DNA from: Octopus vulgaris
Lineage: Eukaryota
Direction: 5' to 3'
Length of the DNA: 64,000 nt
Assembly (NCBI GenBank): GCA_951406725.2
Contig: OX597830.1
Coordinates: forward strand, 36,208,001 to 36,272,000
In this document: piece by piece, positions 19,959-35,468 of the stretch
Position numbering within the stretch: the first letter of the stretch is position 1
How the letters are laid out: each line of letters begins with the position of its first letter
Notes under the pieces: generated by a model
The model's database searches: none
Told to the model about the DNA's origin: nothing
Seen by the model: only the letters and a program-made list of their open reading frames with translations
Translations under genes and position numbers: made by a program

Positions 19959-20336
19959 CCGTTCTACATTTAAGAGATGAGGAATTATGTAGTAGTTAAA
20001 AGTGTGGACTACTAACCCCAAGATTCCGAGTTCGATTCCAGACAGTGACTTAAATATTATTATTATTATTATTATTATTATTATTATTATTATTATTATT
20101 ATTATTATTATTATTATGATTAATAATAATAATAATAATAATAATAATAATAACAATAATAATAATAATAATACACAACAACAACAACAACATCGAAAAA
20201 TACCTTAGGAATGAGAACCTAAGTTCCAAATTTCCCCAAGACACCTGATGAAGGCTGGGGGGTATATCAGCCGAAACGTTGTGTTAAAAACAAACAAGAT
20301 GAGGACAAACATCCGTCAAATGTAAATAATGTAAAT
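19959..20336 (+). mobile_element. SINE family C copy 1: inverted 3'-tail piece, 5'-clipped tRNA head, (ATT)n(AAT)n, hammerhead tail
   Basis: B box gagttcgattcc; 10-bp TSD aaattcagta at 19949-19958 and 20337-20346; homologous to 23886-24556 and 35133-35468. Confidence 0.85.
20240..20285 (+). ncRNA. minimal type I hammerhead ribozyme motif (Penelope type)
   Basis: Stem I GACAC/GUGUU; core CUGAUGA plus one extra A; stem II GGCUG/CAGCC; GAAA; palindromic ACGU in place of stem III; predicted cleavage after GUU (20280). Confidence 0.8.
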
Positions 20337-20362
20337 AAATTCAGTAGTATATATTATTAACA

Positions 20363-20555
20363 GGGCCGTAGATTGGCAAAATCATACGATCGTTTTAGGA
20401 AATGTCTTGCGATAATTATTCTGGTTGTTTATGTTTTGAGTTCGAATCCTACCAAGGTCAGTTTTGCAAACCAGTCATGTACTGAGATCCCTATTATCGA
20501 CCTAAACGTTTTCCCGCCCCGCTCGAATTTCTGGCCTTGTAGCATCGTTAGAAAA
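20363..20555 (+). mobile_element. SINE family B, diverged
   Basis: ttggcaaaatc...gagttcgaatcctaccaaggtc...ctggccttgt. Confidence 0.6.
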
Positions 20556-20594
20556 AAAAAATAACCATTTCGAGGTTATTGCTCGGCCGCTTTA

Positions 20595-20809
20595 AATAAT
20601 CCTTTCTGCAATAGGCACAAGGCCTGAAATTCGGAGATGAGGACTAATCGATCAGATCGAACCCAGTGTTTCACTGGTACTTATTTCATCGACCACGAAA
20701 GAATGAAAGGCAAAGCTGACCCCGGCGGAATTTGAACTCAGAACGTATGGGCGAAATACTGCTAAGCATTTCGTCCAGTGTACTGACGATTTTGCCAGTT
20801 CACCACCTT
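20595..20809 (-). mobile_element. SINE family B (tail Y)
   Basis: aatcctttctgcaataggcacaaggcctgaaatt...ggcggaatttgaactcagaacg...gccagttcaccacctt. Confidence 0.8.
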
Positions 20810-21197
20810 TATGATTTCAATAATAACAGAAAAATCCTTTCTTTGCCATATTTGGTAACTTTTTTACCAAATATGTAGTGTCATCTAATCCTATGAAATT
20901 AAAAGTCAATTTCCTTCTCTCTACCTCTCTCTCACCATTTCTTTCTATTTTCTTTCTCTCTCTCCCTCTCCTCCTCCCCTCTTTCTCTCTCTCGCTCTCT
21001 CTCTCTCTCTCTCTGTCTATCTCTCTCCTTTTATGACCTGGTTTCCTTAGATACCTTAAGAAAAACTAAGAGATACAGAAGTGAGAGGTGTCTCCTTTGG
21101 TTTAAAAATATTTTGGTGACGTAGATATCTCTGTTATCAAGTCTACAGCTACGATCTCTGCAGTATGCATCTCTTCCTGCTCATTATGTGGGGGCCA

Positions 21198-21416
21198 AAA
21201 GCGACGAGATGGCAAAAACATTAGCACGCCGGGCGAAATGCTTTGCGGTATTGGGTCTGCCGCTACGTTCTGAGTTCAAATTCTGCAGAGATCGACTTTG
21301 CCTTTCATCCTTTCGAGTTCGATAAATTAAGTATCATCGAAACACTGGGGTCGATATAATCGCCTAGCCCCAGCCCCAAAAATTTTCAAGGCCGTGTGCC
21401 TAGAGTAGAGATAATT
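21198..21416 (+). mobile_element. SINE family B (tail Y)
   Basis: Head ttagcacgccgggcgaaatgc, Meta-like core, tail ggccgtgtgcctagagtag. Confidence 0.85.
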
Positions 21417-33647: not shown

Positions 33648-33750
33648 CTCTCCATGTAATACCTGTAAATGTCTCTACGTCTCTCCATGTAATACCTGTA
33701 ACTGTCTCTACGTCTCTCCATGTAATACCTGTAAATGTCTCTACGTCTCT
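33648..33750. repeat. 3 x 33-bp minisatellite
   Basis: ctctccatgtaatacctgtaaatgtctctacgt at 33648, 33681 and 33714. Confidence 0.95.
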
Positions 33751-33861
33751 ACAAGTTTGTGTGTGTGTGTGTGTGTGTGTGTGTGTGTGTGTGTGTGTGT
33801 GTGTGTGTTTCTTGAGATTTATTTAAATTCCTTTTTGTAGAACTCAAGCTGGCCACTAACA

Positions 33862-34070
33862 TAATCCTTTCTGTTATAATAACATTTTGTGGGAGGTGGA
33901 CAGTCCATCCTATCGACCCCAGTACTCAACTGGTACTTAATTTATCGACCCCAAAAGGATGAAAGGTAAAGTCGACCTGCGCGGAATTTGAACTGAGAAC
34001 GTAACGACCGGTCGAAATACCGCTGAGCATTTCGTCCAGGGGGCTAAAGATTCTGCCAGCTCGCCACCTT
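33862..34070 (-). mobile_element. SINE family B with ~19-bp TSD
   Basis: agctggccactaa(c/t)ataat on both sides; empty site visible in the paralogous segment at about 32641-32660. Confidence 0.85.
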
Positions 34071-34336
34071 AGCTGGCCACTAATATAATGACAACGCTTC
34101 TTTGTTAGAGTGAATACAGTTCCAAGATTTGCGAATACATCAGCGCTATTTAATGAAATAACTGACACAGATCAATTTTGAATATGGATTTATGTCGGTT
34201 TACACGTTAGCTAGCTCCTGTTTTAATATGTGGTTGTATGTGTGATGGAAGTGGCTTTCAAATAAGACCTGTAAATGTCTCTATAACTCTACCAGTTTGT
34301 GTGTGAGTGAGATTACCTTTTTGTTAAATATATATT

Positions 34337-34937
34337 ATCTTTTATTTGTCTCAGTCATTGGACTGCGGCCATGCTGATGTAAGACGTTGAACAGTTTAGT
34401 AGTTGAACAAATCGAGTCCAGGACTTATCTTTTAAAGTTTGTTATTTATTTTATCGGTTACGTTTGTCGAACAGCTGTGTTACGGAGTCGTAACAATAGC
34501 CGACCTGGCTGTAGCTGTCAAGTTGTGTGGCTGGGACAAGCACAAAGACACACATATATACATGTATGTATATATATATATATATATATATATATATATA
34601 TATATATATATATATATATGCATGCGCGCGTGTGCATGTTTGCGTATATATATATATATATATATATATATATATATAGATAGATAGATAGATAGATAGA
34701 TAGATAGATAGATAGATAGATAGATAGATAGATAGATAGATAGATAGATAGATAGATAGATATATGACGTGCTTCCATACGGTTTCCGGCCAGCAAATCA
34801 AAATCAAATCCGCACGCACAAGGATTTTATCAGTCGGCGCTACAGTAGAAGACACTTGCCCAAGTTGCCACACTGCAGGATGGAACTCGAAACCATGTGA
34901 TTGGGAAACAAATTCCTTACCGCACATCCACGCCTGC
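34337..34937 (-). mobile_element. SINE family A with expanded internal (TA)n/(GATA)n
   Basis: tcagtcattggactgcggccatgctg tail; agtagaagacacttgcccaag...ccatgtgattggg head. Confidence 0.75.
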
Positions 34938-35132
34938 AACAATGCATAAATTATGTATAAATCTATAATTGTATGATGTACGCAAACGGAATGACGCTTG
35001 TATGTTAATTGTAGGAAATTCGTATGCTGAACATTCATAATGTTTCGCATAACTTCACTGTGACACTGATTGATTGTATTCGAATAATGACATTTATTTC
35101 ACTCCGGTCTTTATTAGTGAGTTTCAGTATTT

Positions 35133-35468
35133 ATGGCATAGTGCTTAATGGCGCGGGCTACTAACCCCAAGATTCCGAGTTTGATTCTAGGCAGTAACCT
35201 AAATAATGATGTTAATAATAATAATAATAATAATAATAATAATAATAATAATAATAATAATAATAATAATAATAATAATAATAATAATAATACTGATAAT
35301 AACAATAATAATAATAATAACATTGAAAAATACCTTCGGAATGAGAACCCAGGTTCGAAATTTCCCCAAGACACCTGATGAAGGATGGAGGGTATATCAT
35401 CCGAAACATTGTGTTAACGAGAAACAAAATGAGGACAAATATACGTCAATTGTAAATAATGTAAATAA
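35133..35468 (+). mobile_element. SINE family C copy 4, full head
   Basis: atggcatagtgcttaatggcgcgggctactaaccccaagattccgagtttgattc tRNA-like head; (AAT)n; possible TSD tttcag. Confidence 0.85.
35370..35415 (+). ncRNA. minimal type I hammerhead ribozyme motif
   Basis: Stem I GACAC/GUGUU, CUGAUGA-A, stem II GGAUG/CAUCC (compensatory change), GAAACAUU. Confidence 0.7.

Follow-up and report, generated by a model that had tools for sequence, protein, structure and literature searches.

A 64-kb stretch of the 2.8-Gb genome of Octopus vulgaris (GenBank assembly GCA_951406725.2, contig OX597830.1, positions 36,208,001 to 36,272,000; hereafter the window), which is AT-rich animal DNA with many microsatellites, contains short repeats that begin like a tRNA gene and end in a hammerhead ribozyme of the kind carried by Penelope-like elements (PLEs). 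Each consists of a tRNA-like head, an (AAT)n spacer and a 3' hammerhead module. The locus raises the question of whether such repeats are a separate short interspersed element (SINE) for which a PLE supplied just the 3' end, as the original prediction proposed, or whether head and spacer are part of the PLE as well. Judged from sequence, the whole SINE-like unit, tRNA head included, is the pseudo-long terminal repeat (pseudo-LTR) of a coding element, which is a decayed member of the Penelope/Poseidon group.

The coding partner was searched for with a pattern for the reverse transcriptase (RT) motif GxAMGSPxSP. The pattern has 118 matches, compared with none for the control, and nearly all of the 100 matches listed belong to one family. 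A head in sense orientation lies downstream at 19 of 30 RT-motif loci, 17 of them at the expected distance of 0.95–1.15 kb, and a head or a tail is present at 24 of the 30. In longer stretches, the head directly follows the open reading frame (ORF) at 27 of 39 RT loci. Locus L204 is full length, with the order head, (AAT)n, hammerhead, tail, ORF, head and a period of ~2.77 kb, and locus L203 is nearly so (tail, ORF, head, tail). The element unit is thus a repeat of tRNA head, (AAT)n, hammerhead and tail, then the ORF, then the same repeat, ~2.6–2.8 kb in all, with the head starting ~40 nt past the ORF stop. The ATG of the ORF is positioned 22 nt into the module, so that the hammerhead and the tail are coding sequence, and the frame MRTQVRNFPKTPDEGWRVYQPKRCV continues into the PLE N-terminus. 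RT motifs and the endonuclease (EN) motif VYSIPCSCG..YKGET are legible across broken copies. The expected longer matches next to an ORF for RT and GIY-YIG endonuclease were therefore found, and they belong to an element that shares the module.

A Zn-finger linker between RT and EN is the criterion for Neptune, and also occurs in Nematis, according to the accessible part of PMC8557442. In the alignment, the RT–EN linker of the octopus element lacks the Neptune Zn finger, which places the element in Penelope/Poseidon. In a tree built without a named Poseidon reference, the octopus element and the Neptune copies from its genome are separated with values of 100/100. The protein has 1,176 homologs, of which the closest are 55–68% identical and the full-length ones ~810–870 aa long, and an 847-aa relative from another source, 55% identical, retains the hammerhead-encoded peptide. 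In a distant PLE (L353, 30% identical), the layout of the hammerhead is the same and its stems are changed; an A/B box is absent. No DNA of relatives was found in the viral collection, and a metagenome scan yielded nine distant loci, of which six were examined and none had an A/B-box or head match.

Other candidate partners were rejected. Neptune-type PLEs, sampled as 30 GIY-YIG loci and 12 longer stretches, share only chance matches of 15–22 nt with the module. Among Hydra-like and other PLE families, found by an endonuclease pattern, the best match in 30 loci of 310 matches is 19 nt long (E 0.15). A tail derived from a long interspersed element (LINE) was considered as well. The 3' ends concerned, R4/Dong-like by their motif, are secondary insertions into the (AAT)n spacer; such ends, and those of another repeat, are present inside the spacer upstream of position 1501 in L019 and in L017, L024 and L030. 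The link to a PLE rather than to a LINE was foreseen correctly, since the insertions have a PLE footprint and the 3' module is the N-terminal coding sequence of a PLE ORF.

The short copies show no sign, in their sequence, of a separate lineage. In a comparison of 34 ORF-linked with 63 short copies, the two groups agree in their majority base at every one of 223 columns. Base frequencies differ (p < 0.02) at five columns, including two or more CpG sites, a difference that is given no weight because the short set was partly picked for high similarity. In two sets of 30 loci, head and tail occur together in 28 and 25, respectively. The proposed non-autonomous SINE is not supported by these comparisons, as its head and spacer belong to the pseudo-LTR of the coding element.

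The head resembles tRNA-Arg(TCG) most closely, the best of 25 distinct genes of six isotypes, with 46 of 73 positions identical in an ungapped alignment (z 10.2). Only 9 of 21 cloverleaf pairs are formed in the head, versus 21 of 21 in tRNA-Arg(TCG), and the A and B boxes are kept, both fitting their consensus. ARAGORN found no tRNA in the window. Rfam, which the original prediction had suggested as a check, gave no tRNA or hammerhead match in a 351-nt stretch with a good copy, the scan of the window being limited to the best 150 of 375 matches. The retention of boxes together with the loss of stems has been argued to be a mark of promoter function in the element Helenus (PMC10886601, accessible part).

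The window contains exactly four hammerhead modules, as determined by blastn of each module against the window, and they are 89–93% identical over 149–155 nt (E 1e-53 to 1e-60). Each carries a piece of the tRNA-like head and the (AAT)n spacer, in agreement with the four copies originally reported. However, copy 2 (23886–24216) is on the minus strand, head-to-head with copy 3, and is the inverted arm of copy 3, so that the four modules count as three insertions, and the limits of copies 1 and 3 had to be corrected. The segment 19962–19991 is an inverted copy of the 3' tail of the element, not a head; copy 1 is enclosed by a 10-bp target duplication; and copy 3 starts at 24215, not 24228. The heads of copies 1, 2 and 4 are truncated or damaged, and that of copy 3 has a deletion at the B box. 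The features are as follows, the spacers being assigned by their sequence:

19949–19958, plus strand: left target-site duplication of insertion 1 (10 bp), exact repeat at 20337–20346
19962–19991, minus strand: inverted 5' partner in insertion 1, made up of the optional 3' tail in inverse orientation, 96.7% identical over 30 nt to 23888–23917
19990–20051, plus strand: copy 1 tRNA-derived head, 5'-truncated within the A box; B box 20028–20039
20052–20189, plus strand: copy 1 (ATT)n/(AAT)n/(AAC)n spacer
20190–20336, plus strand: copy 1 hammerhead module, PLE ORF start (ATG 20211, early stop in this copy); short 3' end
20240–20285, plus strand: copy 1 hammerhead, intact core, predicted cut after 20280
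20337–20346, plus strand: right target-site duplication of insertion 1
23879–23885 and 24557–24563: candidate 7-bp duplication around the insertion of copies 2 and 3
23886–24058, minus strand: copy 2 module, long 3' end (tail ~23886–23915), inverted arm of insertion 2
23963–24008, minus strand: copy 2 hammerhead with core change
24059–24182, minus strand: copy 2 (AAT)n spacer
24183–24216, minus strand: copy 2 head, 3' half, B box intact (24196–24207); 2–3 nt microhomology at the junction with copy 3
24215–24289, plus strand: copy 3 head; tRNA position 1 at 24222, preceded by 7 nt; A box 24229–24239
Within 24215–24289, plus strand: copy 3 head deletion directly before the B box core
24290–24411, plus strand: copy 3 (AAT)n spacer
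24412–24556, plus strand: copy 3 module, PLE ORF start (ATG 24433, frame open); short 3' end
24462–24507, plus strand: copy 3 hammerhead, core intact
35122–35127 and 35469–35474: copy 4 weak 6-bp candidate duplication
35132–35200, plus strand: copy 4 head, beginning at about tRNA position 6; B box mutated
35201–35319, plus strand: copy 4 (AAT)n spacer
35320–35468, plus strand: copy 4 module; no inverted partner
35370–35415, plus strand: copy 4 hammerhead, stem III palindrome broken

The spacer flips between (ATT)n and (AAT)n within one copy at 20058–20172 of the window and in the 5' repeat of L204, which suggests inversion or fold-back inside the microsatellite.

The majority state of the family has all the features of the minimal type I hammerheads of metazoan PLEs described by Cervera and de la Pena 2014 (PMC4209133, accessible part): a CUGANGA and GAAA core, stems I and II and a palindromic stem III. 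The assignment of the module to this class is therefore upheld, and the CUGAUGA/GAAA core is present in the majority state of 107 distinct copies. The motif that had been quoted for all four copies in the window is complete only in copy 1, where the predicted cleavage site at 20280 agrees with the motif position. Copy 3 keeps the catalytic core and has a changed stem I, the core of copy 2 is altered to CUUAUGA, and copy 4 has lost the stem III palindrome. Copies 3 (24462–24507) and 4 (35370–35415) each contain one two-sided change that keeps a hammerhead stem pair, compared with only three such changes in 107 other copies, and these changes may be due to chance or to hairpin repair.

The hammerhead is intact in 38 of the 107 distinct copies, with losses mainly at CpG. 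The core columns are conserved at 97.4%, compared with 96.4% elsewhere, and two-sided changes number three in 107 copies; near-equal conservation of the core and the remaining columns is as expected for neutral decay. Fold z-scores are weak (−0.6 to −2.1), monomer folds sequester the core, and the lowest-energy state in cofolding is not the active dimer. The hammerhead is predicted to cut only as a dimer or with the help of protein. The ribozyme of the anole element PAc is protein-assisted and dispensable for insertion (PMC11167929, accessible part). The copies do not end at the GUU site of the ribozyme; their ends are located ~50–85 nt 3' of this site and at the tRNA start.

Insertion footprints were determined from 52 inverted pairs in 87 stretches, after the removal of five duplicate loci. 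In 46 of the 52 pairs, one end is long, with a 25–35-nt tail, and the other is short; five pairs are short/short and one is long/long. One locus is counted twice in these numbers, and three of the short/short pairs look long by inspection, with the counts left as they are. The longest string shared by the 40-nt flanks is at least 8 bp in 30 of the 52 pairs (control 6.8%) and at least 10 bp in 19 (control 0.8%). Of 30 complete heads, 20 have an inverted partner. Such a partner, together with a one-sided 30–40-bp tail, forms the PLE signature as described in PMC8557442, and the tail of PAc reflects two internal RT start sites, with both target strands nicked and extended (PMC11167929; both sources as accessible). 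The Penelope link of the insertions is confirmed.

Two side observations concern insertion products. Stretches L303–L352 contain many internally deleted tandems, in which the 5' repeat and 30–650 nt of the ORF start are directly followed by the second repeat, an arrangement typical of template jumps. Downstream of the module in L018, the 3' junction and target sequence are amplified as a local tandem repeat of ~31 bp.

The family is large. A 25-mer taken from the module has 4,330 exact matches in the genome (control 0), and the same 25-mer is exact in five of 35 head-selected modules and in seven of 30 non-seed partner modules, the latter including a few loci also chosen as seeds. Division of the count by the exact-match fraction gives an estimated total of ~19,000–30,000 modules. 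The density is ~1 module per 100–150 kb genome-wide, not 1 per 16 kb as in the window. Individual copies diverge by 5–7% from the column majority, which at the rate used in PMC13282606, as far as that source is accessible, corresponds to a rough age of 14–19 million years.

The 5' ends of the copies pile up at the start of the tRNA-like head. Among 98 modules, the 5' end is in the module in 23, in the spacer in 23, in the head past +12 in 16, between +12 and −15 in 31, and further upstream in five; the tally contains one row twice, and one of the five upstream cases is an artefact due to a mirror. Counts of exact 25-mers decrease by ~70%, from 2,521 at head positions +1 to +25 to 696 at −36 to −12. 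When 30 complete heads were taken in position order, 24 stopped between +1 and −9 and six ran on. Past −36, the 5' ends of 30 copies are spread evenly from −46 to −2,463 with a median of about −440, so that a loss of ~5% is expected over the same span. In contrast, ~70–80% of the copies that reach the tRNA start end there. The excess indicates that an RNA likely began at the tRNA start, and the best guess for the polymerase is Pol III (RNA polymerase III). Trimming by RNase P was rejected as the source of the ends because the head has a broken acceptor stem and many ends fall between −4 and −10. Contigs from four runs of unrecorded kind cover most of L204 and were not used as evidence of transcription, ends or levels.

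Runs of four T residues (T4) are rare on the sense strand of the element. No T4 run is common to 20% of copies over 2,468 positions, and all copies together have 0.45 runs per kb, compared with 2.19 expected from composition, 2.1–4.7 in Neptune ORFs, and 6–8.5 in distant, T-richer relatives.

We consider it probable that the repeats derive from a Penelope element with a tRNA-headed pseudo-LTR, transcribed from the head by Pol III, with copy ends set by RT. Pol III would start a few nucleotides upstream of tRNA position 1. From the 3' repeat it would produce a short RNA ending at a flanking T-run, and from the 5' repeat it could continue across the ORF, where no T4 run is shared among copies. 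Nicks made by the enzyme in the two target strands would be ~10 bp apart, and reverse transcription would start at two sites within the RNA, giving one long and one short end. The two complementary DNAs (cDNAs) would then join head to head. The hammerhead does not set the ends of the copies.

Several results weigh against this explanation. The best copy matches Pfam RVT_1 with an E value of 2.5e-6, just under the cut-off, and has no GIY-YIG match in Pfam; none of 125 scored copies has an intact ORF, the longest open frame being 569 of ~800 aa. Complete 5' heads are present at only four loci in the junction sample (50 of 55 tail-to-ORF loci), and of these three start at the head and one continues upstream. 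The T4 deficit is weak under a dinucleotide null, which expects only ~3 runs (single-copy P 0.12–0.78), the bias in Phe codons (p 0.054 and 0.22) is only borderline, and T4 is scarce as well in the endonuclease pieces that other PLE families have in this genome (four runs in 4,500 nt). The model gives no account of the translation of an uncapped Pol III RNA. tRNA position 1 is the centre of an imperfect 24-nt palindrome (−9.1 kcal/mol as RNA, −4.6 kcal/mol as cDNA), fold-back mirrors of at least 10 nt occur at nine of 30 heads, and palindromes at the 5' ends of Adineta pseudo-LTRs have been read as self-priming sites (PMC3846280, accessible part). A TATA-like motif at −36 to −29, exact in 10 of 18 copies, suits Pol II as well as Pol III.

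It is conceivable, though rather unlikely, that the palindrome and the TATA-like motif mark an ordinary Pol II-transcribed Penelope, whose pseudo-LTR contains an old and inert fragment of a tRNA-derived SINE, that the short copies are 5'-truncated insertions, and that their pile-up reflects fold-back of the nascent cDNA at the palindrome or a Pol II start. However, 15 of 30 complete heads end between +1 and −9 and have no mirror of 10 nt, and fold-back is expected of a cDNA that ends at about −6, which together favour an RNA end. Many ends at +1 to +4 precede the copying of the palindrome centre, and the cDNA hairpin is weak; an inert fragment also fits poorly with the scarcity of sense-strand T4 runs and with boxes that are kept while the tRNA stems are lost. 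An extended form of the Pol III model, in which an autonomous element is transcribed over its full 2.7–3 kb from the captured tRNA promoter, has its sense strand purged of T4, and has its uncapped RNA translated behind a tRNA-(AAU)n leader, so that the PLE would be its own SINE, appears unlikely to us. An independent non-autonomous SINE lineage that has only its 3' end from a PLE would account for the predominance of short copies, the joint occurrence of head and tail and the PLE footprints, but it is largely refuted and very improbable, since the head is inside the coding element's own repeat at both ends and none of the 223 columns has a diagnostic majority difference. A retrozyme-like element amplified through self-cleaved circular RNA is hardly credible: the unit of ~330–380 nt with a type I hammerhead and some partial head-to-tail tandems resemble one, whereas the copies are dispersed or head-to-head and neither copy end maps to the cleavage site.

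The tRNA-headed Penelope can be compared with known systems, in each case as far as the cited source is accessible. Similar to Penelope/Poseidon PLEs with an endonuclease, PAc (PMC11167929) and Adineta Pen2/Pen3 (PMC3846280), it has a single ORF for RT and C-terminal GIY-YIG of ~800 aa. As in PAc and Pen2/Pen3, the pseudo-LTR holds the ORF start and a minimal hammerhead, with a palindrome at the 5' end of the repeat, and the insertions have an inverted 5' partner, an optional one-sided tail and duplications of ~8–17 bp. Unlike in those elements, a tRNA-derived A/B-box segment forms the beginning of the octopus pseudo-LTR, and the start of the ORF precedes the hammerhead core instead of coinciding with the AUG within it. 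A further difference is that copies consisting of the repeat alone, with a defined 5' end, are far more numerous than copies with the ORF. The words "tRNA" and "SINE" are absent from PMC3846280. In comparison with PLE minimal hammerheads (PMC4209133), the octopus motif has the cleavage triplet GUU, is without an Rfam match and is a predicted ribozyme only.

The Sm-alpha repeats of schistosomes (PMC6765202, PMC8490949) likewise combine a Pol III-type promoter and a type I hammerhead in ~330 nt. However, they are described as tandem repeats from which the ribozyme releases monomers, whereas the octopus repeat is a PLE pseudo-LTR with ends set by RT and an identified coding parent. The TRIMp3 elements Cassandra, Helenus and Ajax (PMC10886601) resemble it in having a Pol III promoter derived from a small RNA in the terminal repeat, with the boxes kept and tRNA function lost; they are non-autonomous LTR elements whose autonomous partners are expected to use Pol II, whereas the octopus segment is in the repeat of a coding element. 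Non-LTR retrozymes and non-autonomous PLE derivatives (bioRxiv 10.64898/2026.07.22.740005; PMC7229834; MRC1, PMC8557442) are also short, pseudo-LTR-related hammerhead units that need PLE enzymes. They are defined as tandem repeats, and no tRNA head is described for them in the accessible text; the octopus copies are dispersed or head-to-head.

The window and the sampled stretches contain further repeats. A second, older SINE-like family is present at 24575–24790 of the window and in about a dozen other places, for example 2751–2885, 16625–16793 and 28054–28189; its 12 further matches in the window are 68–81% identical. Stretches L091–L095 (for example L093:268–1704 and 1626–3968) contain a young Neptune-type PLE family with many intact 781-aa RT–EN frames and an overlapping upstream frame of 479 aa. 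Its hammerhead has the variant core UUGAUAA and its 3' ends are at (AT)n; this family was probably active recently. Decayed Hydra-like PLE families in L103–L132 (for example L119, L126 and L128) have short endonucleases, are unrelated to the module, and have a hammerhead with a bulged A ahead of stem II. An unrelated repeat inserted in L106 contains a further hammerhead-like motif (~2510–2554), which has a stem II of 5 bp and is oriented antisense to the endonuclease frame.

PLEs, their hammerheads and their insertion footprints are already known. A coding PLE with a tRNA-type promoter in its pseudo-LTR was not found in a full-text literature search that left aside most subscription papers, supplements, Dfam and Repbase. 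The same search found no report of a hammerhead repeat in octopus, and a prior family name is possible, Dfam and Repbase being outside its range. By definition, SINEs are Pol III-transcribed parasites of LINEs, and terminal repeats with promoters from small RNAs have been described for non-autonomous LTR elements. Here, a coding Penelope has the putative tRNA-type promoter within its repeat, and the SINE-looking copies, which number in the tens of thousands, are that repeat. The octopus family illustrates a route by which a SINE-like family arises without a LINE, and it is a warning that such families can be misfiled as unclassified SINEs. It also provides an unusually large set of defined PLE insertion ends, with two start sites, duplication lengths and head-to-head junctions, which may serve the study of an insertion mechanism that is still poorly understood. 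If Pol III does read the whole element, this would overturn the expectation that coding retrotransposons are transcribed by Pol II or Pol I.

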